From: Tidjanibacter sp.
GTDB taxonomy: Bacteria; Bacteroidota; Bacteroidia; Bacteroidales; Rikenellaceae
NCBI GenBank assembly: GCA_045656405.1
Contig: JAZORC010000002.1
Span: 91,572 to 155,571 of the forward strand
Length of the DNA stretch: 64,000 bases
Reading direction: 5' to 3'
Position 1 is the stretch's first letter, and every line of letters begins with the position of its first letter. The position numbers were made by a program, and so were the translations under genes. Shown one piece after another: positions 9,967-63,818 of the stretch. The notes beneath the pieces were generated by a model that saw only the letters and a list, made by a program, of their open reading frames with translations, was not told the origin of the DNA and made no database searches.

Positions 9967-9974
9967 CAAATATA
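9967..9974 (-). promoter_or_regulatory. Bacteroidota sigma-A -7 element (TATATTTG) of rpmB operon
   Basis: Matches TAnnTTTG about 50 nt upstream of the rpmB ATG. Confidence 0.7.
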
Positions 9975-9981
9975 CGAAAAG

Positions 9982-10009
9982 AATTGAAAATTGAAAATTG
10001 AAAATTGAA
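9982..10009 (+). repeat. (AATTGAA)4 heptamer array
   Basis: Four perfect tandem copies. Confidence 0.95.
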
Positions 10010-10063
10010 AAATATTCAAAAAAACACTCCCCTCTCCAAGTGGAGAAGGGAGCTTTTCTACGG

Positions 10064-10084
10064 TCTAACGTCTAACGTCTAACG
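10064..10084 (+). repeat. (TCTAACG)3 heptamer array
   Basis: Three perfect copies; same unit at 20254 and 52437. Confidence 0.92.
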
Positions 10085-10087
10085 TCA

Positions 10088-10132
10088 AGAGTCTTAAAGT
10101 CCTTAAAGCCATCAAGGTCTTTATGGCCCTTA
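10088..10132 (+). repeat. Degenerate 9-mer array (AAGTCCTTA-like x5)
   Basis: AGAGTCTTA AAGTCCTTA AAGCCATCA AGGTCTTTA TGGCCCTTA. Confidence 0.75.
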
Positions 10133-10141
10133 ATGCCAATT

Positions 10142-12160
10142 CTACAAGATCTCTTTAACCTCGGCAGCAACGGTTACACCATTGAAGCCAAATTTCTCGT
10201 CGAGAACCTTGTAGGGAGCCGAGTAGCCGAAGTGATCCACGCCGTGAATCTTACCTCCCACGCCCACAAGACCTTCGAGGGTTACGGGCAGACCTGCGGT
10301 CATACCATAGCGGGGCAGGCCCTCGGGAAGTACCGAGCGCTGGTAGTCAACACTCTGGTCGCGGAACAAACCCTCGCTGGGAACGCTCACAATGCGCACA
10401 TCAATACCCTCTGCTTTAAGCAGTTCGGCGCCCTCTACGAGGGTGGAAACCTCACTACCGCTGGCAATCAGAACCGCCTTTGCATTGGGACTGTCACACA
10501 CAACGTAGCCACCCTTGCGCAAGCCCTCGGCCTCCTCGCGGCGGTTGCCCTCGGCGGGTAGGTCTTTGACATTCTGGCGCGAGGTGATGAGTGCCACGGG
10601 CCTCTCCTCCTCCATTGCCAACTTCCAAGCCTCCACGGTCTCGGCACCATCGGCGGGACGGAGTACAACCATACTGCGCTCGCCATTGTGATTTTTCAGG
10701 TGCTCCAAAAGGCGGATTTGCATCTCGTGCTCAATGGGCTGGTGGGTGGGGCCATCCTCACCTACGCGGAACGAGTCGTGGCTCCAAATATATACAACGT
10801 GGATGCGCATCAGGGCTGCAAGCCTTACTGCGGGTTTCATATAGTCCGAGAATACAAAGAAGGTACCACACGCGGGAATGATACCACCGTGGAGTGCCAT
10901 ACCATTCATAATACAAGCCATCGTGAGCTCCGAAACACCAGCCTGGAAGAACCTACCACTCCAATCACCCTTTGCGAAAGGTTTGGTCTTTTTGAGGAAG
11001 CCGTCGGTCTTGTCCGAGTTGCTCAAATCGGCCGATGCAACTACCATATTCTCAACCTGTTCTGCGTATGCACCAAGCACGGTTGCCGAGGCGTTGCGGG
11101 TTGCGGCACCTGCTGCAATCTCAATCTTCGAGTAGTCTATTTCAGGGGTCTTGCCACTTAAAAAGAGGTCGAGTTTCGAGGCGAGTTCGGGATTCTCCTC
11201 CCTCCATTTCCTCTCCACCTCTTTTCGCTCTGCTGCCCAAGTGCGCAACTCCTCACGACGAGCATCGTAGAGAGCCTTCACTTCGGGGAAAATCACAAAG
11301 GGATTCTCGCTGTCGCCACCCAAATTCTGGATGGTGCGTGCAGGGTCGGCACCCGCAGCCGAGATGGGCTGACCGTGGGTGGAAATCTTGTTCTCGAAGC
11401 TTCCACCATTGGCATCCATCGCGCCCAAACCCATAAGAGTTTTACCAATAATTAATGTGGGGCGCTCACCCTCTTTGAGAGCCTCTTTGAGAGCTTCTCG
11501 AATGCTGTCGGCCGAGTTGCCATTGCACTCCAAAACGTTCCAATTCCAAGCCCTGTATTTGGCTGCAACATCTTCGCTATCAACATCTTCAACGGTGGTT
11601 GAGAGCTGGATGTTATTAGCATCGTAGAACATAATCATATTGGACAAACCGAGGTGGCCCGCAATGCGACCAACACCTTGCGAAATCTCCTCCTCGACAG
11701 CACCGTCGGAGATATAAACATAGGTTTTGTGTGCGGTCCATTCGCCAAAGCGAGTAGCCAAGAAACGCTCTGCCATAGCAGCGCCAACGGCCATTGCGTG
11801 ACCCTGTCCAAGGGGACCCGAAGTGTTCTCAATGGCGTGCGAAAGGTCCCTCTCGGGGTGGCCAGGAGTTACGCTTCCCCACTGGCGGAAAACTTTCAAA
11901 TCCTCAATGTTCATAATACCTGCCAGAGCAAGTACGCTATAGAGCATAGGCGACATATGGCCGGGGTCGAGGAAGAGTCGGTCACGGAAGGGGTAGGCGT
12001 AGTTGTCGGGGTCGTAGCGGAGGAACTCCGAGTAGAGCACATTGATGAAGTCTGCGCCACCCATCGCACCACCAGGGTGTCCCGATTTGGCTTTCTCTAC
12101 CATTGAGAGTGCAAGGATGCGGATGTTGTCTGCTGCCCTGCGTGTAACTTGGTTGTTCAT
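10142..12160 (-). CDS. tkt: Transketolase
   Basis: SGHPGGAMG, TPGHPE, SGPLGQG, ThDP motif SDG...DAN, GEDGPTHQP. Confidence 0.97.
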   Translation of the reverse strand: MNNQVTRRAADNIRILALSMVEKAKSGHPGGAMGGADFINVLYSEFLRYDPDNYAYPFRDRLFLDPGHMSPMLYSVLALAGIMNIEDLKVFRQWGSVTPGHPERDLSHAIENTSGPLGQGHAMAVGAAMAERFLATRFGEWTAHKTYVYISDGAVEEEISQGVGRIAGHLGLSNMIMFYDANNIQLSTTVEDVDSEDVAAKYRAWNWNVLECNGNSADSIREALKEALKEGERPTLIIGKTLMGLGAMDANGGSFENKISTHGQPISAAGADPARTIQNLGGDSENPFVIFPEVKALYDARREELRTWAAERKEVERKWREENPELASKLDLFLSGKTPEIDYSKIEIAAGAATRNASATVLGAYAEQVENMVVASADLSNSDKTDGFLKKTKPFAKGDWSGRFFQAGVSELTMACIMNGMALHGGIIPACGTFFVFSDYMKPAVRLAALMRIHVVYIWSHDSFRVGEDGPTHQPIEHEMQIRLLEHLKNHNGERSMVVLRPADGAETVEAWKLAMEEERPVALITSRQNVKDLPAEGNRREEAEGLRKGGYVVCDSPNAKAVLIASGSEVSTLVEGAELLKAEGIDVRIVSVPSEGLFRDQSVDYQRSVLPEGLPRYGMTAGLPVTLEGLVGVGGKIHGVDHFGYSAPYKVLDEKFGFNGVTVAAEVKEIL

Positions 12161-12216
12161 AGGTCTTTGTGATTTTGAGTTATGTTTTATTTCTATTGTC
12201 TTTTCGAATCAATCCA

Positions 12217-12224
12217 CAAATATA
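12217..12224 (-). promoter_or_regulatory. -7 element (TATATTTG) of tkt
   Basis: TAnnTTTG match upstream of the tkt start. Confidence 0.7.
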
Positions 12225-12232
12225 ACTAATAA

Positions 12233-12266
12233 AATTGAGAATTGAAAATTGAGAATTGAAAATTGG
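12233..12266 (+). repeat. AATTGAR heptamer array (4 copies plus partial)
   Basis: AATTGAG AATTGAA AATTGAG AATTGAA AATTGG. Confidence 0.93.
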
Positions 12267-12575
12267 GGGGAGAGAGTTTGGGGTGTTGTCAATGTGGAGG
12301 TTTGAAATGGCTTATGAGGCCCTGTTTGTGTGATTTTGTTTGCACTTTGTGTTCTTGATAAAAAACTCCATCGTGATACCTGCTGAAATATAGGCAAAAA
12401 GCCTAATGGAGGCAGTGTGGGAGAAAAATATTTTTGTGGAATAGTTGGAAATTTCATATAGAATAACTATCTTTACAAAATAAAATGTGTCGTTTTTCGA
12501 CACAGAAATGGCGCTCCTTGATGGTAAGTGTTTGAGTACGTCATCGTTACGCGCGTTGTGCGCGTGGGGGTGATA

Positions 12576-12583
12576 TATCTTTG
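12576..12583 (+). promoter_or_regulatory. Candidate -7 element (TATCTTTG) of the susC operon
   Basis: TAnnTTTG match; an alternative match TATTTTTG lies at 12429-12436. Confidence 0.5.
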
Positions 12584-12778
12584 AGGTTCGTTGTGCCCGC
12601 CTGCGTGTGGGCGTGCGAGAGGCCCAAAGGGGGTGCAAGTGTGGAAATGATGACAAAATGTTGAAAAAAAGTCGGCAGAGAGTCCGAAGAGGGTTTTGGG
12701 CCGACCAAGATGGATAAGATAAAACTAAACAAACTACAAAAACTTAATTATTAACAACACAAACTAAAAATTAATCGT

Positions 12779-15778: not shown

Positions 15779-15796
15779 ACCTCTTAAAATTGTGAT

Positions 15797-17338
15797 ATGA
15801 CTATGAAAAAGATTATATTTATTGCAATTAGCGCACTTACAGCTCTGTTTGTATCGTGCGATATGAATAAGTTGCCCTACTCCTCGATTGACGAGAGCCA
15901 GGGTATTCAGTCGATGAGCGATGCAGACCAGTTGCGCGTCTCGATTTACTCGCCCACCAAAGGTATGTTCGGTGGTGGTCGTTGGGATATTGAGGATATG
16001 CGTGGTGGTATGTTCAACGCGATGGCCGACTTTGGTAACTACTATGGTCTGTTCTATGCTTGGGATATGCAGACCAACGACTCCGATGTTGAGAGCATTT
16101 GGTATGCCGATTATAGCCTCATTGCAAGTATGAACTATGCAATTGGCGCATACACCAATCTGCTCAAAAACGGAACCGATGCTATTACAGGTAAGGCTCT
16201 TACCGATGATGAGAAGGATGCTTTGGAACTCTACATTGCAGAGGCTTATATGACTCGTATTATGGCTTACTGGGATTTGGTTACCAAGTTCTGCGTGGCT
16301 TACGATGCCGAGACCGCTGCTAACGAGTATGGTCTTCCTCTTGTGAGCGAGTATGCACCCACCTCGGATAACACCAAATATCCTGGTCGTAGCAGCCTCG
16401 AAGAGACCTACCAATTCATTCTTTCCGACCTCGAAAAGGCAAGTGAAATCACCACCAAAGGTGAGGCAAATAGCAAATATTGGACTATTGATGCTGTGAA
16501 CGCTATGCGCGCGCGTGTATTACTTAATATGAAGGACTACGCTAACGCAGCCGACGTTGCACTCGAAGTTATCAATACCAACAACTATGCACTTGCAGTT
16601 GGCGAGGATGGTCAGAAAGGTTTGTGGGAGAAAGACACCTCTTCGGAGCTTATCTTTGTGTCGGCTTGCAACTTGAATGATACTCCTACCTCGACCGGTT
16701 CGTTGTATATCTACGACAACGAGGTTGGTGATGGTTCGACTCCCGACCCCCAGTATATCCCCAGCAAGACTCTCTTGGATCTCTACAACAAAGAGTTTGA
16801 TGCTCGCTACTCCATCTACTATGCAACTCGCAAAGTGAATGTTGAGGGTGCTGGTGAGGGCAATTTGGAGCTCTTCTATAAGTTCCAGGGTAACCCCGCG
16901 TTGCGCACCAGTGACAAGCTCAACTATATGAATGCAGGTAAGCCTTTCCGTATTGCAGAGATGTACCTCACCTTGGCAGAGTGCTACGCTGCTTTGACCG
17001 ACTACGCAAATGCGGCTAAATGGGTGAATTTGTTGCGTGTTTCGCGTATTGATAGCGAGGGCAACCCCAACCTTCCTGCAACTGCTGGTATCTACAACAG
17101 CATCAAGGAGGAGTGGAACCGTGAGTATGTTGGCGAGGGCTTCCGTATGATCAATATGAAACGTTGGGGCGATACTGTTATTCGCGGTACTTCGCAGAGC
17201 TCGGCTATGACCAAGGGTGGTGAAAAGTACGATGGTTTGGTAAGGGATATTACCGACAGCCGTTGCATCTTGCCTATTCCCAAGACCGAGATTGACTCGA
17301 ATCCCCAGATTAAGAACCAGCAGAACCCTGGTTACTAA
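15797..17338 (+). CDS. SusD/RagB family lipoprotein
   Basis: Lipobox FVS-C; FRIAEMYLTLAE, EWNREYVGEGFRMINMKRW, LPIPKTEI..NP. Confidence 0.93.
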   Translation: MTMKKIIFIAISALTALFVSCDMNKLPYSSIDESQGIQSMSDADQLRVSIYSPTKGMFGGGRWDIEDMRGGMFNAMADFGNYYGLFYAWDMQTNDSDVESIWYADYSLIASMNYAIGAYTNLLKNGTDAITGKALTDDEKDALELYIAEAYMTRIMAYWDLVTKFCVAYDAETAANEYGLPLVSEYAPTSDNTKYPGRSSLEETYQFILSDLEKASEITTKGEANSKYWTIDAVNAMRARVLLNMKDYANAADVALEVINTNNYALAVGEDGQKGLWEKDTSSELIFVSACNLNDTPTSTGSLYIYDNEVGDGSTPDPQYIPSKTLLDLYNKEFDARYSIYYATRKVNVEGAGEGNLELFYKFQGNPALRTSDKLNYMNAGKPFRIAEMYLTLAECYAALTDYANAAKWVNLLRVSRIDSEGNPNLPATAGIYNSIKEEWNREYVGEGFRMINMKRWGDTVIRGTSQSSAMTKGGEKYDGLVRDITDSRCILPIPKTEIDSNPQIKNQQNPGY

Positions 17339-17373
17339 TAGATTGTGTAATCTGCTAAAAACTGAATAAGACT

Positions 17374-18513: not shown

Positions 18514-18544
18514 TCGCTATCTAAATCCCTTGTGGGATTCTATG

Positions 18545-18577
18545 GAGCCGAGGCACTTTTGCGCCTCGGCTCTTTTT
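18545..18577 (+). terminator. Intrinsic terminator of the susCD operon
   Basis: GAGCCGAGGC-N8-GCCTCGGCTC then TTTTT. Confidence 0.85.
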
Positions 18578-18664
18578 CTTTCCTCCCAAGAGGTGGCGCA
18601 ATGCCAAGGGGGTAATTAATTGCTTTTTTTGTGCTTGGAGAGTTGCTAATTGGCAGAAAATTAT

Positions 18665-18672
18665 TACCTTTG
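18665..18672 (+). promoter_or_regulatory. -7 element (TACCTTTG) of tig
   Basis: TAnnTTTG match 60 nt upstream of the ATG. Confidence 0.7.
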
Positions 18673-18732
18673 CATCCCGCAATTTATGCGCAAAGAAGGA
18701 GAGAAATCAGAATCAAAATATAAATAACAACT

Positions 18733-20064: not shown

Positions 20065-20075
20065 AAGGTAATTTC

Positions 20076-20149
20076 TTCGTTACGCTTGAAGGCGGCTTCC
20101 TCATTTACGATAAGTAAACTGCGGAGCCGCCTTCTTCGCAAGCCTTGAA
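20076..20149. repeat. Dispersed hairpin element, copy 1 (core TCCTCATTTACG-N4-GTAAACTGCGG)
   Basis: Core, flanks and spacing shared with 58727-58801. Confidence 0.8.
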
Positions 20150-20253
20150 ATTCCTCTTCTATTTTGCTTTTTGCGTTTTGGGATAGGCTGCGGGCTCGAT
20201 CCTTCTTTTGGCACAAAAATCCCTCCACAAAACCCACTCGCGGGGAAAAGATG

Positions 20254-20281
20254 TCTAACGTCCAACGTCTAACGTCTAACG
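20254..20281 (+). repeat. TCTAACG heptamer array (4 copies)
   Basis: TCTAACG TCCAACG TCTAACG TCTAACG. Confidence 0.92.
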
Positions 20282-20311
20282 ACGCGGGCAACAAGTCGCC
20301 CGAGGAATTAT

Positions 20312-20365
20312 TAAGGTCATTAAGGACTTTAAGGATATTAATGTCCCTAACTTCCCTAACTTCCC
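20312..20365. repeat. Degenerate 9-mer array (6 units)
   Basis: TAAGGTCAT TAAGGACTT TAAGGATAT TAATGTCCC TAACTTCCC TAACTTCCC. Confidence 0.8.
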
Positions 20366-20402
20366 TATTGGGTAGAGCAAAGTCTGCACTAAAAGTTTTT
20401 GG

Positions 20403-20444
20403 TGAAGCTTTTTACAAAAAGCTTCAAGAAAATTTGTACCTTTG
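20403..20444 (+). promoter_or_regulatory. clpP promoter with an 11-bp perfect palindrome over the -33 region
   Basis: TGAAGCTTTTT-AC-AAAAAGCTTCA (20403-20426) and TACCTTTG (20437-20444). Confidence 0.6.
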
Positions 20445-20508
20445 GGGTTTGATGGGTTGCATTGTGGTGTAACCTTTGCAATGACGAATTATAATAATAG
20501 GTAAGCAT

Positions 20509-21177: not shown

Positions 21178-21185
21178 TGTGAAAG

Positions 21186-22484: not shown

Positions 22485-22497
22485 AAGAATGAGTATC

Positions 22498-24994: not shown

Positions 24995-25046
24995 GAGAAA
25001 AAATTGTTATCTCCAAATTTTTTCCTACGAAAAAGACAAAAAAAAG

Positions 25047-25080
25047 TCGCGGGTATCAATTCCGATACCCGCGAACAAAG
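25047..25080. repeat. Palindromic repeat TCGCGGGTATC-N6-GATACCCGCGAACAAAG
   Basis: Near-identical at 61814-61847; shorter variant at 59135-59158; probably acts as a terminator. Confidence 0.8.
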
Positions 25081-38114: not shown

Positions 38115-38150
38115 AAAGTTGAGAGTGCAAAACTTTGCGCTCTCAACTTT
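38115..38150. terminator. Hairpin terminator upstream of the oxyR promoter
   Basis: AAAGTTGAGAG...CTCTCAACTTT; -7 element TAACTTTG at 38157-38164. Confidence 0.7.
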
Positions 38151-38180
38151 TATTTATAACTTTGCGAAAAATCATAGGCT

Positions 38181-39513: not shown

Positions 39514-39547
39514 GATTGAGAATTGAGAATTGAGAATTGAGAATTGG
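39514..39547 (+). repeat. AATTGAG heptamer array after the rsfS stop
   Basis: GATTGAG (AATTGAG)3 AATTGG, followed by 9-mers GAGTCCTTA AAGTCCCTA. Confidence 0.93.
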
Positions 39548-39621
39548 AGTCCTTAAAGTCCCTAATAAAAATTTTCGGTCACAGAGCGACCGCGACATTT
39601 GACCAGACTACGTCTGCTCTA

Positions 39622-39678
39622 AAATGCTCACGCTCGGCATAGTCTGCAAGCAGCCTCTGCTCTCGCTTACTCGCATTT
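39622..39678. repeat. Imperfect hairpin element (AAATGC...CGCTCGGCA...TGCTCTCGCTT...GCATTT)
   Basis: Nested inverted repeats; resembles dispersed Bacteroidales repeats from memory; single copy in this window. Confidence 0.45.
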
Positions 39679-39786
39679 GCGACGTTAGACTAAATTTTGA
39701 ATTTTGCATTTTGAATTCCCCCTGGGGTACTAAAATTCAAATCCCTGCGTTACTGATTGGAAAGATTAATAAATAAACCAATATAG

Positions 39787-51310: not shown

Positions 51311-52455
51311 AGATAAATTTTCTGGGGCCGGCGTTTCCCTATCGTGGAGGTCTGGCGACAATCATAGAGAGCCTGGCAAGGGAGTTTCAGGCGAGGGGTA
51401 ACGAGGTGACCATCGACACATTCTCGTTGCAGTACCCACGCCTATTGTTCCCTGGTAAGAGCCAATTCCGCACAGGCGAGAAGCCTCACGATATTGCTAT
51501 TGCCCGCACGGTGAGCACTGTGGGACCACTCTCGTGGTGGAGGGTGGGGCGTAGGCTCCGTAGGGAGGCCCCCGATGCTGTGGTATTGAAATATTGGACA
51601 CCACTGATGGCTCCCTGCTTCGGTACCATCTGTCGCTTGGCGCGCAAAAATGGCAAAACAAAAGTTATTGTTCATCTCGATAATATCACTCCCCACGAGC
51701 CCCACTTCTACGATAGAGTGCTGAATCGCTATTTTCTCGCCTCGTGCGATGGTTTTATCTATATGTCCGAGGCTGTCAATCGCGATTTGCGCACTTTTCT
51801 GCCAAATCCGAAGGCACTCTTCTCACCCCATCCACTCTTTGATAACTATGGCGCGAAGGTGCCCCGAGAGGAGGCGTGTGCCCGCTTGGGCCTCGATTCC
51901 AAGCAGAGCTATGTGATGTTCTTCGGCTATGTGAGGGAGTATAAGGGGCTGGATATCTTGCTCGATGCGTGGGCTCTCTTGAAGGCCGAGGGTAAGACGG
52001 TGGGTAGGAAACTGCTCGTTGTGGGCGAGGTCTATGGTAGCGATGCGAAATACCGTGAGCAGATTGAACGCTTGGGCTTGCAGGATGATGTGGTTGTGCA
52101 TAGCGACTTTGTGCCCGATGAGAAGGTGGCCGATTGGTTCTCGGTGGCCGATATGGTCGCCTTGCCATATAAGTCGGCAACCCAGAGTGGTGTCACACAG
52201 GTGGCCTATGCCTTCGATGTGCCTATGGTTGTAACCAATGTGGGTGGCTTGGCAGAGATGGTTGAGGATGATGTTGTGGGTGTGCTTGCCGAGGTGAGTG
52301 CCCGCTCGGTGGCCGATGCCATTGCCAAGGTCTATGAGGGCGACAACCTCACCCGCTACCGCGAGGGGGTGAGTCGCAATAAGGCCCGCTTCTCGTGGAG
52401 CGCCACAGCCGATAGGATAGAGGAACTTTTTAGGAGTCTAACGTCTAATGTCTAA
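51307..52455 (+). CDS. Glycosyltransferase family 4
   Basis: Start taken at MKINFLGPAFPYRGG; FFGYVREYKGLD; PYKSATQSGV. Confidence 0.92.
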   Translation: MKINFLGPAFPYRGGLATIIESLAREFQARGNEVTIDTFSLQYPRLLFPGKSQFRTGEKPHDIAIARTVSTVGPLSWWRVGRRLRREAPDAVVLKYWTPLMAPCFGTICRLARKNGKTKVIVHLDNITPHEPHFYDRVLNRYFLASCDGFIYMSEAVNRDLRTFLPNPKALFSPHPLFDNYGAKVPREEACARLGLDSKQSYVMFFGYVREYKGLDILLDAWALLKAEGKTVGRKLLVVGEVYGSDAKYREQIERLGLQDDVVVHSDFVPDEKVADWFSVADMVALPYKSATQSGVTQVAYAFDVPMVVTNVGGLAEMVEDDVVGVLAEVSARSVADAIAKVYEGDNLTRYREGVSRNKARFSWSATADRIEELFRSLTSNV

Positions 52456-52464
52456 CGTCTAATG
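52437..52464 (+). repeat. TCTAAYG heptamer array overlapping the GT4 stop
   Basis: TCTAACG TCTAATG TCTAACG TCTAATG. Confidence 0.9.
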
Positions 52465-52652
52465 TCTCGGGCTCAGTAAACCGCCGAGCCCGAGAACTTA
52501 TGGGAGTTCTATGTTTTTCAGAGTTCTTCTAACCCCTCCATCAAATAAAGACTCGGGGCACACCAAAATGGCGTGCCCCGAGTCTTTTGACTTTCGACGT
52601 TAGACTACAAAAGATAGTGGCTTGGTAATTTTACCAAGCCACTATCTTTTGT
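52465..52652. terminator. Three hairpins between convergent genes
   Basis: Stems 52465-52495, 52547-52587 (15 bp) and 52607-52652 (22-bp perfect). Confidence 0.75.
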
Positions 52653-52653
52653 C

Positions 52654-54015: not shown

Positions 54016-54060
54016 AAAAGTTTGCGTTTAGTATTGTGATAAAATATTGATTTTCAACAT

Positions 54061-56007
54061 TTAGTTCTTCTGATACCTCTTCAAGATACCATAGGCCTCC
54101 TTAATGCCCAACTCACCCGCCTTGCTTAAATCCATAACACCCTTCTGGGTGTCCTTCATCAGCAACTGCACCAATCCGCGATTGAAATAGGCCTCGGCAA
54201 GTTCGGGGGCCATAGTCAGCGCTCGCGAGTAGTCCTCATAGGCGGCAGGCATATCGCCCGAAAGAGCGTGGAGATTGCCCCTATTATAATATATGTATGC
54301 CACATCGGGGGCAAGCTCTGCGGCTCTATTTAGGTCGGCAATCGCCTCATCGTAGTTGTAGGTGCGCTTGGTCTGTGAGCGTAGGGTCATATCCGAATCA
54401 ATCGAAATCCTATCGCCCATACCCACCGACGATATGAACTCTATCATCTCGGCCCTCGCCACTGCGCGGTTGAGGTAGAGCATCGCATCCCGTGGCGAAA
54501 GGCTAATGGCCTCCGTGAGGATGTTGATTGCCGAGGTGTATTGCCTCATTGTGAGTTGCGAAATAGCCCAGCGGAAGAGTGATTCTACGTCGGTGTAGGC
54601 CACACCCTCGTAGCGTTCATTGACCTTTGCAACCTCCTCCTCGGTAAGTCTTGTTGGCTCATTGGAGAAGACTATGAGTGTGTCGCTCGCCACCCCCGTA
54701 GCCTCCAATATGGGGGAGTAGTAGTGGTGGGCCTCCGTTGTGCGAGGAGCCCCCAGCGACCAACGGAACATCTCGCGCAAGGTGGCATTCGTTGCGCTCT
54801 CCTCGGTGAGTTTCCTCTCCGCAAGGCGCGACTCAAACGATAGGAGTTGGTTGAAGTGCCTCGATGTGTCGGCATAGATATTCAGCCCCTCGGGGTCCTC
54901 CGCCAATCGTGCCTCATACTCGGCAATCTTCCTATCGGCAATGGCGCGGTCACGCTTTGCACCCGCACTATCGTGAATCTTATCCTTCACCACAGCCCTA
55001 TGTAGGTAGGCGTTGGCAAAGTCGGGGTAGAGTTCAATAGCCTTGGAGTAGTCACCCAGTGCCTCCAAGTCCCTATTCATCTCCATCAGCACTCCTGCGC
55101 GGTTGTAGTATCCCTTCACATTCTCGGGTGCGTGTTCCAACACCTTGTCGTACATCGCCAACGCCTGGGGAAAGTTGCCCTGAATGGAGTGGATGATAGC
55201 CAAGTCGAAGTAGGCACTCGTAACGTAGGGATTCAGCTCCAACACACGCTCAAAGTCGCGTGTGGCCTCCTCGTAGCGCTCCAAGTTGCAGAACACAATG
55301 CCACGATTGAAGATGGGTTGGAGGTAGCTGCTGTCGCACTTGATGGCCATATTGTACATCTCCAAAGCCGCCTCATTCCTACCCTCGGCCATCAGCAACA
55401 TAGCCTTCTGGTTGTAGCCCTCGGTGTAGTCGCGGTTGGTGCGGATAGCCCTGTCGAAGCTCTCGTGGGCACCGAGTGTGTCCCTCAAACCGAGCAGCGC
55501 CACACCGCGGTTGATGTAGGTCTGTGCATCCTTGTCGGTCACTCTCAAAACCCTGTCGAAATCAACTAACGACTTTACCCACTGTTTGTTACGCAGATGG
55601 GTGACACCTCTCGAATAGTAGGAACCGATGATGTCGGGGCGCAGTTCGATGGCGCTCGTTAGGTCCTTCACGGCATCCTCATAGTTGCCCAACTCGGCAT
55701 TGACAATTCCTCGGTAGTGGTAGGCCTCGGTATAGACCTCGTTTATCTCAATGGCTCGCGTGAGGTCGGCTCTGGCACCCAGCAGGTCGCCCAAGCCGAG
55801 CTTGGCATAGCCACGCAGATAGTAGGCCTCATAGGACTCCCTATCGGAGCGAATCAGTACATTGAGAATGTCAATTGCATCCTTATAGTTATCCTCGGCA
55901 AGCATATTGCGACTTGCCCACGCGATATAGCGTTTGTTGTACTGCGCGTGAGTTTCCCCAACGCACAATACAACTAACATCGCAAATATCGTGACAAGTC
56001 TTTTCAA
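54061..56007 (-). CDS. Secreted tetratricopeptide repeat protein (TTG start)
   Basis: Signal peptide ending THA-Q; many AYY.RG / A..D...AI TPR units. Confidence 0.88.
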   Translation of the reverse strand: MKRLVTIFAMLVVLCVGETHAQYNKRYIAWASRNMLAEDNYKDAIDILNVLIRSDRESYEAYYLRGYAKLGLGDLLGARADLTRAIEINEVYTEAYHYRGIVNAELGNYEDAVKDLTSAIELRPDIIGSYYSRGVTHLRNKQWVKSLVDFDRVLRVTDKDAQTYINRGVALLGLRDTLGAHESFDRAIRTNRDYTEGYNQKAMLLMAEGRNEAALEMYNMAIKCDSSYLQPIFNRGIVFCNLERYEEATRDFERVLELNPYVTSAYFDLAIIHSIQGNFPQALAMYDKVLEHAPENVKGYYNRAGVLMEMNRDLEALGDYSKAIELYPDFANAYLHRAVVKDKIHDSAGAKRDRAIADRKIAEYEARLAEDPEGLNIYADTSRHFNQLLSFESRLAERKLTEESATNATLREMFRWSLGAPRTTEAHHYYSPILEATGVASDTLIVFSNEPTRLTEEEVAKVNERYEGVAYTDVESLFRWAISQLTMRQYTSAINILTEAISLSPRDAMLYLNRAVARAEMIEFISSVGMGDRISIDSDMTLRSQTKRTYNYDEAIADLNRAAELAPDVAYIYYNRGNLHALSGDMPAAYEDYSRALTMAPELAEAYFNRGLVQLLMKDTQKGVMDLSKAGELGIKEAYGILKRYQKN

Positions 56008-56021
56008 CTCTCAACTTTCAA

Positions 56022-58649
56022 CTATTTAAGAGCCGCAATTCGTTCTTTGATTGCGGCGATTTTAGCCTCGGCATCCCTCTGTTTGTTCCTCTCGTTCTCG
56101 ACAACGGCAGCGGGGGCATTGGCCACAAACCTCTCGTTGGAGAGTTTGCCCATAACGGTGCGCAAGAAGCCCTCGAAGTAGGCGAGCTCCTTGGCCATCT
56201 TCTCCAACTCCTCCTCCACGTTGATGTTCTCACTCATAGGAACAAAATACTGCGTGGTCTTAACAATAAACGCAGCAGCGGTGGGGTTCTTCTCCTTCAC
56301 CTCTCGAATCTCCGAGAGATTTGCCATCTTCTCCACCAAGCAGTTGTAGGTGGGGTAGTAGTTCTCATCCACGATGACCTCCAATGCCACCTGCTCCTTG
56401 TTGGGGATGTTCTTCTGTGCGCGGATGTTGCGGATGCCGCTCACAACCTCACGAGCCAAATCAACCTCGGCGAGCATCTTCTCGTCCCAGGGTTTGTGCT
56501 CCTCAAACAAGTCGAGCATCACGCTCTCACCCTCCTTGCGCTCCGAAACGTGCTGCCACAACTCCTCGGTTACGAAGGGCATAAAGGGGTGGAGCAGTTT
56601 CAGCAGACGCTCAAAGAATCGCTTGGTGGCAGCAACGGTCACTGCATCAGCGGGCGAGCCATAGGCGGGCTTAATCATCTCCAAGTACCAACCGCTGAAA
56701 TCGTCCCAGAAGAGGCGGTAGAGGGTCATCATTGCATCCGAAATGCGGTATGCCTCGAAGTGCTCCTCAATCTCCTTGTAGGCCTTCTGGTAGACATTCT
56801 CAAACCACTCGACAGCCTTTGCGCAGTGCACACTCTGTGCGAGATTATCATCAACCTCCCAGCCGGTCAAGAGGCGGTAGGCGTTCCAAATCTTGTTGCA
56901 GAAGTTACGGCCCTGCTCACAGAGGCTCTCGTCGAACATCAGGTCGTTACCTGCCGAGGTGCAGAGCATCAGTGCAACCCTCACGCCATCGGCACCATAC
57001 TGTGCAATCAAATCCAGCGGGTCGGGCGAGTTGCCGAGCTGTTTGGACATCTTACGGCCCAACTTGTCGCGCACGATACCTGTGAAATAGACGTGATTGA
57101 AGGGTTTTTCGTTCCTCCACTCGTAGCCAGCCATAATCATCCTCGCTACCCAGAAGAAGATGATATCGGGACCGGTAATGAGGTCGTTGGTGGGGTAGTA
57201 GTAGCGAATCTCGGCGTTGTCGGGCTGGCGGATGCCATCAAATACGCTGATGGGCCAGAGCCACGAGCTGAACCAAGTGTCCAAAACATCCTCCTCCTGA
57301 CGAAGGTCGGCAAGAGTGAGTGTTGCATCGCCCGTCTTGGCGCGTGCAGCCTCCAATGCCTCCTGCTCTGTTTCGGCTACCACAAAGCCACCTTTGGGCA
57401 GATACCACGCGGGGATGCGGTGGCCCCACCACAACTGACGCGAGATGCACCAATCTTTGATATTCTCCATCCAGTGGCGGTAGGTATTTTTGTACTTCTC
57501 GGGCACAAACTTAATCACATCCTCCATTACGGCCTTGGTCGCGGGCTGTGCCAGCTCCTCCATCGAGAGGAACCACTGCATCGAGAGTTTGGGCTCAATA
57601 GCCACACCTGTACGCTCCGAGTAGCCCACATTGTTGGTGTATGCCTCGGTCTTCTCCAAGAGGCCTGCTGCCTCCAAGTCGCCCTCAATCACCTTACGGC
57701 ACTCAAAGCGGTCCATACCAACATACAAGCCCACCTTGTCGTTGATGGTGCCGTCGGGGTTGAAGATGTCGATGGTTTCGAGGCCATACTTCTCGCCCAA
57801 CATATAGTCATTCACATCGTGCGCGGGAGTTACTTTCAGCGCACCTGTACCAAACTCAATATCCACATACTCATCCCTGATGACGGGCACCGAGCGACCA
57901 ACGAGGGGTACGATAACCCTTGCATCGGCAGGAAGGTCGGCATAGCGGGGGTCGTTGGGATTCACACACACTGCCGAGTCGCCCAAGATGGTCTCGGGAC
58001 GTGTGGTAGCAACAATGAGTGCGCGGTCGGAGCCCTCCAACTTGTAGCGCAGGTAGTAGAACTTACCCTGCGACTCCTTGTAGATTACCTCCTCATCCGA
58101 AAGGGCTGTTTGTGCCGAGGGATCCCAATTGACCATCCTCACACCACGGTAAATCTTACCCTTGTTGTAGAGGTCTACGAATACTTTGATGACACTTTCG
58201 CTGCGGGGCTCATCCATTGTGAAGCAGGTGCGGTCCCAATCGCACGACGCACCGAGCTTGCGGAGCTGTTGGAGGATGATACCACCGTGTTTCTCCTTCC
58301 ACTCCCAAGCGTGGGCGAGGAACTCATCGCGTGTGAGGTCGCTCTTCTCGATACCCTCGGCTTTGAGTTTTGCCACAACTTTCGCCTCGGTGGCGATGGA
58401 TGCGTGGTCGGTACCGGGCACCCAGCAGGCATTCTTACCCTTCATACGAGCCCTGCGCACCAAAACATCTTGGAGTGTGTTGTTGAGCATATGGCCCATA
58501 TGCAACATACCTGTCACGTTTGGTGGGGGAATAACTATGGTGTAGGGCTCTCGGTTGTCGGGCTCGGAGTGAAACATATTGTGCTTCATCCAGTAGTCAT
58601 ACCACTTGTTCTCAATCTCTTGTGGTGTGTATTTGTCTGCAAGTTTCAT
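56022..58649 (-). CDS. valS: Valine--tRNA ligase
   Basis: [48 protein letters not shown]. Confidence 0.98.
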
Positions 58650-58692
58650 AAGTGTTATATTTTGTTTTGTTCTATTGTTGCTTATTATTTCA

Positions 58693-58917
58693 CTCCACCT
58701 TTCGGCTGTGCCTTGTGGGCGATTTCTGCGTTATGCTTTTGTTTTGTCATCCTCATTTACGCTCGGTAAACTGCGGTGCCAAAACAAAACCAAGCCTTGA
58801 ACTCCCCTCACAAAACCCAGCCGCGCTATGTGGGGAGTATCTTTGCAAAACCACCCCAAATTGTGGGGACTTTTGTCGTTTTGCTCCACCTTTCGGCTGT
58901 GCCTTGTGGGCGATTTC
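58693..58917. repeat. 34-bp exact direct repeat (58693-58726, 58884-58917) around a 157-bp segment
   Basis: CTCCACCTTTCGGCTGTGCCTTGTGGGCGATTTC twice. Confidence 0.92.
58727..58801. repeat. Dispersed hairpin element, copy 2
   Basis: TCCTCATTTACG-CTCG-GTAAACTGCGG core plus CAAGCCTTGAA 14 nt later, as at 20098-20149. Confidence 0.8.
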
Positions 58918-58951
58918 GGTCCTGTGCTTTTATTTTTGCGCATTTAACCTC

Positions 58952-58959
58952 CAAAGATA
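58952..58959 (-). promoter_or_regulatory. -7 element (TATCTTTG) of valS
   Basis: TAnnTTTG match; implies a leader of about 300 nt. Confidence 0.6.
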
Positions 58960-58967
58960 CGAAAAAG

Positions 58968-58995
58968 AATTGAGAATTGAAAATTGAGAATTGAG
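58968..58995 (+). repeat. AATTGAR heptamer array (4 copies)
   Basis: AATTGAG AATTGAA AATTGAG AATTGAG. Confidence 0.95.
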
Positions 58996-59038
58996 ATTTA
59001 TCTCCCCCAAGGGGAGATTTGGAGGGATAAATGGCCTG

Positions 59039-59110
59039 TGAGTCATATAACTTCAATAGGTCTAATAAGTCTAATAAGTCCTATAATCCCCATAGGTTCT
59101 ATACGTTCTA
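59039..59110 (+). repeat. Degenerate 9-mer array (8 units)
   Basis: TGAGTCATA TAACTTCAA TAGGTCTAA TAAGTCTAA TAAGTCCTA TAATCCCCA TAGGTTCTA TACGTTCTA. Confidence 0.8.
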
Positions 59111-59308
59111 TGAACAATTGTCTCCTCAAACTTTTCGGGTATTAAAAAAGATACCCGAGGGCAAGTGGAGGGCGGATTGTTGGCCACCGACCGAGGCTTA
59201 CTCAATTTGACTGATTGTTAATAACTTTTTTCCTTGTGAGGGAGTTTGGCGCACGAAATGTGCTATATTTGCGTGAATTTTTGTAAATATGGTATATTAC
59301 GCACGATT

Positions 59309-61741
59309 ATGAATAGAAACAACAAGAATAAAAGTGTAGAATTTGAAATAGGCGTAGGCATAGGTGAGGCCACCGAGGGTATCCATCAGGTAATTCCCAT
59401 TGTGGGTGATGAGGATGAGCTCGGAGAGAGGGTGACTATTCCCTCCGAACTTCCCATCCTTTCGTTGCGCTCTTCGGTGCTCTTCCCCGGGGCCATCACT
59501 CCCATTACGGTGGGTAGGGAGAAGTCCATCAAACTTGTGAGGGATGTGGAGCGCGAGGGTGGTATCTTGGGTGCTGTTTTGCAGCGTGAGGCCGATGTGG
59601 AGAATCCCGCAGCCGACGATATGTACCGTGTGGGTACCGCTGCCAAGATTCTCAAAATTCTCGAAATGCCCAATGGCAACCTTACGGTGATTCTCCACGG
59701 TTTGGAGAAGATTGAGGTTGTGCAATTCCTGCGCTCGGAGCCCTATATGAGGGCGGCAGTGAGTGTGTTGCAGGATGTAGCCCCCGACAAGAACAATGTT
59801 GAGTTTCAGGCTATTGTCGATTCGGTGAAGGATGTGGCATTGGACATCATCTCCATCTCGCCTGGTATTCCCAAAGAGGCAACTTTTGCTATCAAGAATA
59901 TAGACTCCAAGCGTGGAATCATCAACTTCATCTGCTCCAATATGGACTTTACGGATGCCGAGCGTCAGAAACTCTTGGAGGCCCCAGGCTTGTTGGCTCG
60001 CTCGCGTAAGTTGCTCGAATTCCTCATCAATCAGCGCCAACTCGTGGAGCTGAAAAACCAGATTCAGGGCAAGGTAAAGCAGGAGATTGACCAGCAACAG
60101 AAGGAGTATTTCATACAGCAACAGATTCGTACTCTCCAAGATGAACTTGGTCACGACGAACTGAACGATGCGGAGAGGTTGCGCGAGAGGGCTGCCCACA
60201 AGAATTGGAACGACGAGGTGGCGGCTGCTTTCGAGAAGGGTGTGCAGAAATTGGAGCGCCTGAATCCTGCGGTTGCCGAGTACTCGGTGGAGATTAACTA
60301 CCTCGAAACGATGCTCGACCTGCCTTGGAACGACATCACCGAGGATAATATGGACCTTGCGCAGGCACGAGAGAGGCTCGATGCCGACCACTTCGGATTG
60401 GAGGAGGTCAAGGAGCGCATCTTGGAGCACTTGGCGGTGATGAAACTCAAAGGCGACCTCAAATCGCCCATTCTCTGCCTCTATGGCCCTCCCGGAGTGG
60501 GTAAGACCTCGCTCGGTAAGAGTGTGGCCGCGGCTCTTGGTAGGAAGTTTGGCCGTATTTCTCTGGGTGGTCTGCACGATGAGTCGGAGATTCGTGGTCA
60601 CCGCCGTACCTACATTGGTTCGATGCCTGGTCGTATTATCGACACCATCAAGCGTTGTGGTTCGTCCAACCCTGTGATTATCCTCGACGAGGTAGATAAG
60701 GTGAGTCGCTCCAACCACGGTGACCCTTCGAGTGCCCTCTTGGAGGTCTTGGACCCCGAGCAGAACTCCACCTTCCACGACAACTATATCGACATCGACT
60801 ACGACCTCTCGAAGGTGCTCTTTATAGCCACAGCCAACAATGTTGGCAACATCTCGCAGGCCTTGCGTGACCGTATGGAGATGATAAACATTGCGGGCTA
60901 TGTGATGGACGAGAAACTCGAAATTGCCGAGCGACACCTTGTGGGCAAACAGCGTGAGGCTCACGGTATTAAGCCCGAACAGATGACCATCTCGAAGGAT
61001 GTTGTGGCGATGATTATCGACGACTATACTCGCGAGAGTGGTGTGCGCTCCCTGGATAAGCAGATTGCCAAACTCGCCCGCCATCGTGCCAAACAGATTG
61101 GCTTTGGTGAGGAGTTTGTACCCGAGATTAACGCCGAGCAGGCTCGCGAGGTGCTGGGTGCTGCGAAGTTCTCGCGCGAGAGGTACAACATTGGCGGAGT
61201 TGCAGGTGTGGTTACGGGCTTGGCTTGGACCGAGGTCGGTGGCGACATCCTCTACATTGAGTCGCTCCTCACGCCCGGTAAGGGTGCATTGAGCCTTACG
61301 GGCAACTTGGGCGATGTGATGAAGGAGTCGGCAACCATAGCTTGGGAGTGGGTGAAGGCCCACCACGCGGAGCTTGGCATTGAGGCCGAGAAGTTCGAGA
61401 AGCAGGATATCAACATTCACGTTCCCGAGGGTGCGGTGCCCAAGGATGGCCCAAGTGCGGGTATCACAATGGTGACCTCCATTGCTTCGACCTATACGGG
61501 CCGAAGGGTGAAGGAGAACTTGGCGATGACGGGCGAAACCACTTTGCGAGGCAGGGTGTTGCCTGTGGGTGGCATCAAGGAGAAGGTGTTGGCTGCCAAA
61601 CGTGCAGGAATCACCGAGATTATTATGAGCGAGGATAACTGCAAGGATATTTTGGAGATTAAGGCCGACTATCTCGAAGGAGTTACCTTCCACTATGTCA
61701 AGATGGTGGAGGAGGTGCTCGCTATCGCTCTATTGAATTAA
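59309..61741 (+). CDS. lon: ATP-dependent protease La
   Basis: Start taken at MNRNNK; [36 protein letters not shown]; -7 element TATATTTG at 59264-59271. Confidence 0.97.
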
Positions 61742-61770
61742 AAAAAAGAAAATTGAAAATGGAAAATTGC

Positions 61771-61798
61771 GATGCGCTCCCGAACTCGGGAGCGCATC
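61771..61798. terminator. Hairpin after lon
   Basis: GATGCGCTCCCGA-AC-TCGGGAGCGCATC, preceded by AATTGAA AATGGAA AATTGC. Confidence 0.75.
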
Positions 61799-61813
61799 TG
61801 TTTTATAAAAAGT

Positions 61814-61847
61814 TCGCGGGTATCAAAAAAGATACCCGCGAACAAAG
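61814..61847. repeat. Palindromic repeat TCGCGGGTATC-N6-GATACCCGCGAACAAAG
   Basis: Matches 25047-25080. Confidence 0.8.
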
Positions 61848-61898
61848 GTTAAATATATGTACTTGACGACAAGCAGTTGGCGGCTGACGGCCGACACA

Positions 61899-62075
61899 CT
61901 AACTCTCCATATGCATCTCTTCCAAATCTTCGCCCGTGAGGTGGATGATTTCGCCGTTGTGTTCCACGACCAAATCGCCATTCTCCTTGATGGTACGCTC
62001 AATCAGTCGGCGTTGTGCAAGACGCACGCCGTTGTCGATTTTCTCTTGAAGTTGTATCAAATCCATCTCACTCAT
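61899..62075 (-). CDS. Small protein (58 aa) coupled to the zeta-like ATPase; putative antitoxin/partner
   Basis: MSEMDLIQLQEKIDNGVRLAQRRL...; ATGA overlap with the upstream stop. Confidence 0.7.
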   Translation of the reverse strand: MSEMDLIQLQEKIDNGVRLAQRRLIERTIKENGDLVVEHNGEIIHLTGEDLEEMHMES

Positions 62076-62641
62076 AGTTCCATAATTTTTTTGTACGACT
62101 CGGGCTCCAACACATTCCTCACAAGGGTGCCCTGTCCCCACGCCACCTGCTTAACTCCATTGGTGCCACTATTGTCATAGATGGTCCAGAAGTCGCACGC
62201 GGGCATATAGAGAGCCCTGAAATTGCGGATACCGCTGTCGTAACGACGGCGGATGACATCCTCGGGGATGTTGTGCCCACCTTCGGCCACGCGCGTAGCA
62301 ACCCTCTCTATTGCCAATTCGGGCGAGGGGAGCCAGAAGAATAGCAGGGTTACGAAGTAGTTTTTGGCGTGTGCCCTTTCGATGAACTGTGTGTAGGAAC
62401 GCGAGGCGAGTGTGGTTTCGAAGGCGAAATCCTCATCTTGACTCAACAGGTCCTCCATCCTTTGGAGCATAATCCTGCCGGCCTCGATAGCCATACGTTC
62501 CTGATTGAAAGGCGAAAGACCCTTGGCGATTTCGTCGGCATTGACAAACTCGCGACAATCGAGCATTTCGGGCAACATTGTATAGGAGGCTGTGGTTTTT
62601 CCAGCCCCGTTGCACCCTGCTATGATGTAAAGTCTTCGCAT
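62072..62641 (-). CDS. Zeta-toxin family / AAA_33 P-loop protein
   Basis: Start taken at MRRLYIIAGCNGAGKTT; FVNADEIA, FAFETTLA, ERVATRVAEGGHNIPEDVIRRRY. Confidence 0.85.
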   Translation of the reverse strand: MRRLYIIAGCNGAGKTTASYTMLPEMLDCREFVNADEIAKGLSPFNQERMAIEAGRIMLQRMEDLLSQDEDFAFETTLASRSYTQFIERAHAKNYFVTLLFFWLPSPELAIERVATRVAEGGHNIPEDVIRRRYDSGIRNFRALYMPACDFWTIYDNSGTNGVKQVAWGQGTLVRNVLEPESYKKIMEL

Positions 62642-62756
62642 TCTAATTGCAAATATAGAAATTTTTTCTGCAAATCTCGCGCCTAATGCAAAAGAAAAAC
62701 ACCCATTCCTTGCTACGAAGCCAAATGGAATGGGTGTTGTGGGGTTGTTTTGCGCA

Positions 62757-63746
62757 TTAGTGTCTTCTCTGGGCCAGAAAATCACACATCTGTTCGAGCG
62801 AGGTGCGGTAGGGTGAGGTGGGGTAGTTGGCAAGGGCCTCCTTTGCGCGGGCGATGTAGTCGGCCATTATCTCCTCGGCACGCTCTATACCGTTGTATTT
62901 TAGAATCTTGGCCTGAATTTCGGCTATGCTCTCATCATCACCCTTGCCTACCAAACTACGGGTGTAGGCCTCCTCTTCGGCATCCATTCCTACGATTGCT
63001 TCCAAGAGTGGGAGGGTGATTTTGTGCTCTTTCAGGTCGGCACACATAGGTTTGCCCGTCTGGTCGGCCTTGGCGTAGTCGAGGATGTCGTCCTTAATCT
63101 GGAATGCCATACCAATATTTCGCCCAAACTCGTATGCGGCATCCACCTCCTTGGCCGACGCCTTCACCGCCAATGCACCCACGCCACAACTGATGGCCAA
63201 AAGTGATGCGGTCTTTTTGTCGATAATATCGTAGTATTTTTCGTGGGTCATACCGAGCGTTTTGGTCTGCTCGTCCTGAATCACCTCGCCCTCGCAGAGC
63301 CACTTGATGGAGTGAGAAACGTAGGTGAGAATGTCGAACTCCAAACTCTCCATACCAAGCTCAAAGATGCGCGAGAGGATGAAGTCGCCTGTGAGGATGG
63401 CGTTGCGCTTGCCAAACTGCTCATTGACCGACGACTTGCCGTGGCGCATATCTGCACGGTCTATAACATCGTCGTGCACGAGCGAGGCAGTGTGGATGAG
63501 TTCAATGAGCGATGCCGAGAGCAGTACTCGTTTGCCAAAAGCCTTGCCTCCCGAGAGGAGTTTGGCCCACAACATCACGAGCGTTGGGCGCACGCCCTTG
63601 CCACGATTGTCGAATATGTATTTCAGAATATCGTCGAAGTAGCGACTCTCCGAGTGGAGCGCCTCGCGCAAGAACTGCTCATAGGAGGCCATCTCATCCT
63701 TCAAGGGAGCCTTTATAGCTTCGAGTGTTGTAGGTTGTTTTTCCAT
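62757..63746 (-). CDS. Polyprenyl diphosphate synthase (IspB-like)
   Basis: GKGVRP, ELIHTASLVHDDVID (FARM), GMAFQIKDDILD (SARM). Confidence 0.93.
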   Translation of the reverse strand: MEKQPTTLEAIKAPLKDEMASYEQFLREALHSESRYFDDILKYIFDNRGKGVRPTLVMLWAKLLSGGKAFGKRVLLSASLIELIHTASLVHDDVIDRADMRHGKSSVNEQFGKRNAILTGDFILSRIFELGMESLEFDILTYVSHSIKWLCEGEVIQDEQTKTLGMTHEKYYDIIDKKTASLLAISCGVGALAVKASAKEVDAAYEFGRNIGMAFQIKDDILDYAKADQTGKPMCADLKEHKITLPLLEAIVGMDAEEEAYTRSLVGKGDDESIAEIQAKILKYNGIERAEEIMADYIARAKEALANYPTSPYRTSLEQMCDFLAQRRH

Positions 63747-63781
63747 CTCTTTATTTTATGATTTGGGTAGCAAATGCTGTG

Positions 63782-63818
63782 CAAAGATACCGATTAAAAT
63801 TGAGAATTGAGAATTGAA
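63782..63818 (-). promoter_or_regulatory. -7 element (TATCTTTG, 63782-63789) with adjacent AATTGAR x3 array (63798-63818)
   Basis: Seen directly; same geometry as rpmB, tkt and valS. Confidence 0.7.

Follow-up and report, generated by a model that had tools for sequence, protein, structure and literature searches.

The σABfr promoter of Bacteroidetes is composed of a −7 element, TAnnTTTG, and a −33 element, TTTG, with an AT-rich spacer (Bayley et al. 2000, summarised in PMC7366714). The −33 motif is weak in Bacteroides and undetectable in Flavobacterium johnsoniae (PMC7366714). Quite apart from promoters, heptanucleotide microsatellites are over-represented in bacteria, polymerase slippage being one published hypothesis (PMC4692102). 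The best-described relatives of the repeats considered here are the TAACTGA direct repeats found between genes in Beggiatoaceae, Cyanobacteria and Bacteroidetes (MacGregor 2015, PMC4679880); other intergenic heptamers include the cyanobacterial short tandemly repeated repetitive (STRR) sequences and GGGAATC in Xanthomonas (PMC4692102). Both themes meet in the stretch of DNA analysed in this study, 64,000 nucleotides (nt) from Tidjanibacter sp., a member of the Bacteroidales (assembly GCA_045656405.1, contig JAZORC010000002.1, positions 91,572 to 155,571; hereafter the window). Here, tandem arrays of the heptamer AATTGAR lie at a fixed distance from the −7 box of four housekeeping genes, and occupy the place of the spacer and of the −33 element.

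Arrays in fixed register upstream of the −7 box

The minus strand is the transcribed one at all four loci and reads (YTCAATT)3–5, then 7 or 8 nt, then TAnnTTTG (Table 1). The layout had been noticed in an earlier reading of the bare sequence, the original prediction, which placed it at rpmB, tkt, valS and the polyprenyl synthase gene and was right at every coordinate. The gene identities were confirmed (L28, transketolase, ValS and polyprenyl diphosphate synthase, as well as the OxyR-like LysR regulator, desulfoferrodoxin and trigger factor encoded elsewhere in the window), and a repeat search aligns the four modules in register, −7 box included (family D1). Relative to the T of TAnnTTTG the arrays extend from about −9 to −41, thus covering the AT-rich spacer, the −33 place and the start of a zone comparable to an upstream promoter (UP) element. 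No TTTG is found about 19–20 nt upstream of the TA at any of the four loci, which carry TTTT(C) or TTCT(C) at −24 to −20, and no TTG occurs on the transcribed strand of the four arrays. The promoters of tig, tRNA-Met and dfx are devoid of arrays, as had been noted. The single CTCAACT unit reported 8 nt before the oxyR −7 element is likewise present, and turns out to be the 3' arm of the upstream terminator hairpin (−26.6 kcal/mol predicted).

Chance is excluded as an explanation for these composites of array and box. In the window, AATTGARAATTGAR with at most one mismatch has 18 matches against 0.11 expected. TAnnTTTG lies upstream of genes, in gene orientation, and occurs 61 times where 29 would be expected; a −7 box at a gap of 6–9 nt is found for only 0.92% of intergenic position and strand combinations. 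With this background, the probability that at least four of five arrays would have such a box is 3.6e-8.

Table 1. Positions of promoter boxes, heptamer arrays and adjoining hairpins in the window (predicted energies in kcal/mol)
Feature	Position	Strand	Remarks
−7 box, rpmB-rpmG-DUF4295 operon promoter, TATATTTG	9967-9974	−	kept in all relatives compared
rpmB array, AATTGAA x4.3, (TTTTCAA)x4 on transcribed strand	9982-10011	−	gap 7 to −7 box
−7 box, tkt promoter, TATATTTG	12217-12224	−	
tkt array, YTCAATT x4.6	12233-12265	−	TTCAATT/CTCAATT alternating; gap 8 to −7 box
−7 box, valS, TATCTTTG	58952-58959	−	302 nt upstream of valS ATG
valS array, YTCAATT x4	58968-58996	−	gap 8 to −7 box
−7 box, polyprenyl diphosphate synthase gene, TATCTTTG	63782-63789	−	
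Polyprenyl synthase array, YTCAATT x3	63798-63818	−	gap 8 to −7 box
oxyR single unit and −7 box TAACTTTG	38142-38164	+	CTCAACT 38142-38148; 8-nt gap; box 38157-38164
rsfS array, AATTGAR x5 (fifth array of the family)	39514-39548	+	directly after rsfS stop codon; no −7 box; overlooked in the original prediction
Related degenerate array	56002-56023		
CAATTTT/CCATTTT array, degenerate relative	61748-61769	−	non-promoter; after hairpin of convergent lon / zeta-like gene terminator
GTCTAAC (GACGTTA) array	10063-10086	.	same spacer as rpmB array, outside promoter; internal control
Hairpin and T7 run, tkt terminator	10027-10052	−	immediately distal to rpmB array; −25.5
Hairpin distal to valS array	58997-59031	−	immediately distal; −17.2
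Terminator hairpin of upstream metallophosphoesterase gene	63824-63852	−	distal to polyprenyl synthase array; −19.7

The distance histogram called for by the original prediction was obtained from metagenome contigs. These were scanned for CAAANNTA, then 0–30 nt, then an array, a search that favoured no gap and returned at least 120 loci; gaps were measured after locating the true array edge, for 118 distinct arrays among the matches listed. The result is a sharp peak at 6–9 nt with its mode at 8. Seventy-seven of the 118 listed arrays fall in this interval (14 at 6 nt, 18 at 7, 40 at 8 and 5 at 9) as against some 1.3 per bin elsewhere (binomial p = 1e-39), and small echoes at gaps 13 and 15 are accounted for by mutation of the proximal unit. 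The boxes are typically TAYCTTTG, followed by CA, and the gap sequences resemble the normal −8 to −1 region of a promoter, not decayed units. Sequences downstream of the listed composites are unrelated, with only 14 similar pairs. tRNA genes stand behind 12 of 79 listed composites (15%), starting 14–95 nt after the box (11 of the 12 at 14–34 nt), and the remaining open reading frames (ORFs) are mostly housekeeping, their N-terminal sequences identifying S16, S21, HisS, ArgS, GAPDH, IMPDH, GuaA, PurB, dUTPase, FolP, YchF, TatA and others. Arrays 32–34 nt long make up 46 of 80 listed composites, compared to 21 of 72 unselected arrays. The gap peak, together with the variety of downstream genes, indicates that the architecture is recurrent in gut and rumen Bacteroidales; its register is fixed and general, and its occurrence is biased towards housekeeping and tRNA genes.

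The preferred gap is also the one that best matches promoters without arrays. A weight matrix was derived from array-free promoters lacking any period-7 signal, in two versions, one comprising 104 promoters and the other 133, the latter with no loci of this clade and no CAATT, and a periodic TTTTCAA or TTCTCAA sequence was scored in all seven phases over −45 to −9. Gap 8 ranked first (+3.8 and +2.4 bits) and gap 7 second, with the worst phases at −10 bits; this ranking agrees with the gaps seen in the window (8, 8, 8, 7) and in the metagenome (8 > 7 > 6 > 9). The four window promoters score 5.5–8.0 bits, the median of ordinary promoters being 5.8. The array-free consensus carries TTG at −23/−22 and TTT at −16 to −14 from TA, and the 7–8 nt register is best because only there do the T tracts of the array meet the consensus T positions. 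Ordinary promoters in fact have T-rich positions 7 nt apart, with autocorrelation raised at lags 7 and 14. Tandem runs upstream of −7 boxes are of period 7 only (16 versus 0 for periods 5, 6 and 8–11), and other units, TTCACTT, TTCAACT and CTTCCAT, are found at the same place. These genomes also contain many GTCTAAC/GACGTTA arrays, which have poor scores whatever the phase and were never found at promoters. When the array is oriented the other way, the predicted optimum is a gap of 6, and bidirectional modules, five or six in number, with the layout CAAAGGTA-6-AATT(GAGAATT)4–5-TAnnTTTG show 5–6 on that side.

Five loci (L180, L196, L213, L218 and L243) are compact bidirectional promoters, in which divergent −7 boxes about 50 bp apart have one AATTGAR array in common, with gaps of 6 and 5 nt.

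The RNA and DNA runs that include the region are stored as k=31 contigs instead of reads. In the metatranscriptomes, contigs reach 12168-12188 at tkt and span 9550-9932 in the rpmB operon, stopping in both cases between the ATG and the box, and RNA contigs show the valS leader, which must be long given the distance of its box from the ATG, to be transcribed at least up to 58845. The ends of these contigs agree with use of the −7 boxes of tkt, rpmB and valS as promoters. However, assembled contigs also break at repeats, so that this RNA support is weak; the high apparent depth over the arrays comes from unrelated contigs with the same repeat.

Array copy number and occurrence in other genomes

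Strains were compared by anchoring on neighbouring small proteins, the exact Tkt and ValS proteins giving no record matches. No phase variation between strains was seen at the polyprenyl synthase array, which has 3 units in 10 of 10 conspecific contigs, or at the rpmB array, which has 4 units in 8 of 8 (the window and L151-L157). In these same strains the GACGTTA array 60 nt from the rpmB array has 3, 4 or 6 units. The tkt array exists in alleles of 4.6 and 5.7 units, the longer one, with AACT variants, in L151/L152, and the proximal register is unchanged; in L158 it is a decayed relic whose period of 7 is still visible. The rsfS array, a comparison case outside promoters, numbers 2, 2, 2, 2, 4, 4, 5, at least 5, 7 and 8 units in strains with identical RsfS, and the array at 61748-61769 has 3–4 units across strains. 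Copy number is thus stable at promoters and variable elsewhere. This speaks against the suggestion, made in the original prediction, that copy number could tune expression, since it is the non-promoter arrays that vary while promoter arrays are constant among strains.

Between species the picture differs. Upstream of rpmB, the box is conserved across species with identical L28 protein, whereas the array differs: (TTTTCAA)x4, alternating TTTTCCA/TTTTCAA, ATTTTGC/ATTTTGA, a degenerate sequence, or a terminator hairpin with a T7 run. The T tracts keep the same register across species and it is the other three bases of the unit that change.

The distribution of the repeat itself was assessed by scanning 185,579 species genomes for (AATTGAR)3, which returned at least 120 loci. 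Among the matches listed are arrays from Bacteroidales, Thermoanaerobaculia, Cyanobacteria, bacteria of the Candidate Phyla Radiation (CPR), Planctomycetes, Cloacimonadota and others; many of these unselected arrays are inverted pairs or adjoin other heptamer arrays, and a −7 box at gap 6–9 accompanies only 1 of the 73 from Bacteroidota. AATTGAR arrays were also seen after stop codons and in terminator tails. Some arrays of other genomes abut an ATG, whereas the four of the window are antisense and upstream of the promoter; arrays just upstream of ATG (37 of 142) are close to the rough chance expectation. The breadth of phyla and the non-promoter sites identify the AATTGAR arrays as one family of the known heptanucleotide microsatellites. 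They also run counter to a second proposal of the original prediction, a repeat-generating process aimed at promoter-proximal DNA. In the window's clade, 7 is the commonest tandem period (100 Tandem Repeats Finder (TRF) rows) and 9 the second (72 rows). In other phyla (L030, L049, L061, L070, L118 and others) AATTGAR often forms inverted pairs around a short loop, which would fold into long hairpins. All five AATTGAR arrays of the window, plus the array at 61748, read AATTGAR on the plus strand; a replication-strand bias is possible, the cases being few.

Hairpins lie next to several arrays of the window. The T tract of the metallophosphoesterase terminator is itself the first unit of the polyprenyl synthase array, and L245 has a hairpin-array-box layout. 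A terminator hairpin was considered as an obligatory part of the composite and rejected, being absent at tkt and, as a stable distal structure, missing from most listed metagenome composites.

A search of the distal flanks of the composites yielded mostly array remnants and one true dispersed family, of the L226/L237 type. L226, L237, L271, L273 and L186 share a dispersed intergenic module of about 110 nt placed before unrelated genes, with up to 94% identity; it consists of a −7 box, an AAGTGAA-type array, a aaatttgctgccgc spacer, an ATTTTCA array and a −7 box, and looks like the product of promoter duplication or mobility. In a related species, positions 10840-10910 of L122 hold a near-identical copy of the window tkt promoter (distal flank, array and TATATTTGTGG) before a methyltransferase gene; the tkt gene of that species lies elsewhere, behind susD. 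Many metagenome contigs (L133-L135, L137, L140 and L157) end in or beside arrays, these repeats breaking short-read assemblies at promoters and gene ends.

Other repeats populate the intergenic DNA of the window. GTCTAAC arrays at 10063-10086, 20253-20281 and 52436-52467 constitute a second family, of strain-variable copy number and never beside a −7 box. Tandem arrays of 9-mers (ATTAAGGAC, TCCCTAACT, AATAAGTCT and GTCCTTAAA) occupy 20310-20367, 59055-59111 and 39547-39570, with similar 9-mers in the Tidjanibacter loci L079 and L116; next to the rsfS array, 9-mer arrays of the GTCCTTAAA type and AATTTTG heptamers also vary among L131-L140. The rsfS-ftsH spacer further contains a unit of about 95 bp (gacatttgaccagact...cgcatttgcgac, 39575-39690) in 0, 1 or 2 copies depending on the strain, L131 having none and L134, L138 and L139 two. 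In the valS leader of about 300 nt (58650-58950) a 58-nt direct repeat (58688-58745 / 58879-58936) is 86% identical between its copies, and short dispersed repeats of this leader recur downstream of tig, 20098-20128 matching 58750-58780. An Rfam search of the window returned tRNA only, with neither the arrays nor the valS leader matched. A family of hairpins (AAAAAGTTCGCGGGTATC...GATACCCGCGAACAAAG), dispersed at 25040-25080, 61807-61847 and 59126-59166, resembles repetitive extragenic palindromic (REP) elements or terminators. Finally, the ORF at 5845-7344 encodes a collagen-like repeat, the 9-nt coding repeat at 6088-6241 specifying Gly-X-Y triplets (DGADGKDGQDGAQGDKGEQGEKGDKGD...).

Origin and possible role of the promoter arrays

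We regard it as probable that the composites represent generic heptamer microsatellites retained as the spacer, −33 and UP-like half of σABfr promoters, and that the only register retained is the one imitating the usual T-rich pattern. AATTGAR microsatellites, common in intergenic DNA, would grow and shrink by slippage, and at rpmB, tkt, valS and the polyprenyl synthase gene such an array would have become the upstream half of a σABfr-type promoter. A gap of 7–8 nt would bring T tracts and AATT cores onto the T-rich positions at about −14 to −16 and −21 to −24 from TA, allowing the in-register array to stand in for the normal upstream sequence, whereas arrays in other registers would spoil the promoter and not be kept. 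RNA polymerase might then actually use the array, through σ region 4 and/or the C-terminal domains of the α subunit, and selection, not only the mode of origin, might hold the register and the length of 3–5 units. The original prediction had envisioned either an operator or a sigma-assisting element. The second fares well, gaps 7–8 being those that best mimic array-free promoters; a sequence-specific operator does not, as rpmB orthologues swap the unit or have no array.

Several considerations weigh against retention for promoter function. The arrays lack the G of the −33 TTTG consensus. Several relatives have a terminator hairpin with T7 in place of the rpmB array, which implies that the array is dispensable and could be merely tolerated, even if a working promoter can be made from it. 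Gain or loss of whole units leaves the promoter-proximal sequence the same, so that register alone cannot explain stable copy number. The register match would be equally expected if the arrays had grown from the promoter's own T tracts 7 nt apart, and it was scored with a weight matrix built on computationally called promoters. Composites represent just one of the 73 unselected Bacteroidota arrays among the matches listed. Lastly, the RNA evidence, made up of assembled metatranscriptome contigs in which start sites lack single-base resolution, is weak.

An alternative is that the arrays are a neutral by-product, born in register by slippage from promoter T tracts 7 nt apart or from an abutting terminator U tract, and having no role in transcription. 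Ordinary promoters already have T-rich positions spaced by 7 nt and a raised autocorrelation at lags 7 and 14; array-less relatives carry TTTTGCA-TTTTTTT from a terminator tail at the same place, the lone oxyR unit forms one arm of a terminator, three of the four window arrays have a hairpin next to them, and slippage has been proposed as the cause of the heptamer excess in bacteria (PMC4692102). Yet local seeding would give differing units, whereas one YTCAATT unit recurs at dozens of unrelated promoters. Nor would neutrality lead one to expect a copy number frozen at promoters and free elsewhere in the same strains, a length concentrated at 32–34 nt, an enrichment of tRNA and housekeeping genes downstream, or gaps that look like a normal −8 to −1 region and not like decayed units. 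On balance we consider a purely neutral origin rather unlikely. The same recurrence of unit and fixed position at many translation and central-metabolism promoters, with a preferred length of about 4.6 units and with bidirectional modules in which two −7 boxes share one array, might instead evoke an operator array for a dedicated protein with affinity for heptad direct repeats, by which housekeeping and tRNA promoters would be regulated together, for instance in growth-rate control. Direct-repeat operators and iterons would be expected to keep their unit at orthologous sites, however, and upstream of rpmB the unit is not conserved: orthologous promoters change it or lose the array. Identical arrays also abound outside promoters and in phyla whose promoters are of other types, other units (TTCACTT, TTCAACT, CTTCCAT) fill the same place, and no candidate binding protein was identified; such an operator seems improbable to us.

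It is least to be expected that the arrays mainly serve the upstream gene, as an extended T-rich terminator tail or as an insulator between terminator and promoter, and we think this very improbable. Strong hairpins (−17 to −25 kcal/mol) do border the rpmB, valS and polyprenyl synthase arrays on their distal side, a terminator hairpin also precedes the array at 61748, and L245 reproduces the hairpin-array arrangement. Against this, tkt has no hairpin, valS has no co-directional upstream gene, most listed metagenome composites have no stable distal hairpin, and the fixed distance to the −7 box would be left unexplained. One could finally envision that Bacteroidales of gut and rumen have in the array a dedicated, modular "heptad UP element" of about 32 bp. 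Its reader would be RNA polymerase, through σ region 4 or the C-terminal domain of the α subunit, or else a factor that binds heptads. The element would coordinate the genes for tRNAs, ribosomal proteins and central metabolism, multiply as promoter modules are duplicated, and renew itself by slippage in register. We view this extension as doubtful.

If microsatellites are indeed retained as promoter halves, some consequences are worth considering. A natural promoter class with a periodic upstream region, present in one register at dozens of housekeeping and tRNA genes, offers a handle on the upstream requirements of σABfr, as register, copy number and unit sequence can be varied separately in such promoters. 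These might also provide compact, predictable promoter parts for the engineering of gut Bacteroidales. A more practical concern is that the arrays break short-read assemblies exactly at promoters.

Relation to described promoter elements and repeats

The window composites are like σABfr promoters in having a canonical −7 box at the right distance from the gene and AT-rich DNA upstream, and in driving housekeeping genes; they depart from them in that a perfect tandem array of 7-bp units takes up the spacer and −33 region, with TTTT(C) or TTCT(C) in place of TTTG. The promoter descriptions consulted make no mention of such an architecture. The UP elements of strong Escherichia coli promoters, of the rrnB P1 type, are A/T-rich sequences at −40 to −60 that are not tandem repeats and are read by the C-terminal domain of the α subunit. 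The arrays resemble them in being A/T-rich upstream sequences at tRNA, ribosomal-protein and other highly expressed genes, but begin at about −20 and replace the −33 region, and a contact with the α domain would be hypothetical. A further parallel is with the putative mobile promoters that Matus-Garcia et al. reportedly described in 2012, near-identical promoter modules preceding non-homologous genes. Reminiscent of these are L226 and L237, with 94% identity over 67 nt, and the tkt-type module before the methyltransferase gene in L122. They represent, however, a small subset only (the L226/L237/L271/L273 family and L122), most composites sharing just the array and the box.

With the TAACTGA, STRR and GGGAATC repeats the arrays have in common a 7-nt unit, sets of 2–6, intergenic location, occurrence in several phyla, a tendency to break assemblies and, sometimes, inverted pairs. 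Those repeats, however, are mostly in sense orientation just upstream of start codons, or follow no known position rule. The window arrays precede the −7 box at a set distance, are antisense to AATTGAR and would lie outside the transcript. Literature retrieved with the array sequence held only eukaryotic primer or construct sequences, and we found no open-access description of a stable, fixed-register heptamer array replacing the −33 region at Bacteroidales housekeeping or tRNA promoters. Heptamer repeats and promoter microsatellites are each known.

Heptanucleotide repeats in a regulatory region are also known as the (ATCTTTC)n tracts upstream of hmw1A and hmw2A in Haemophilus influenzae, which are phase-variable (PMC12721329, PMC2651432). 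The likeness ends with the tandem heptanucleotide in the regulatory region of a gene. The hmw arrays have at least 11 units, are hypervariable and transcribed, and control surface adhesins. The arrays described here have 3–5 units, are constant between strains, lie upstream of the presumed start site and precede housekeeping and tRNA genes; what is found downstream is not surface, virulence or restriction genes but L28, Tkt, ValS, polyprenyl synthase, tRNAs, S16, S21, GAPDH and the like. A microsatellite that is stable and apparently constrained is, in this respect, the opposite of the classical promoter repeats of phase variation.

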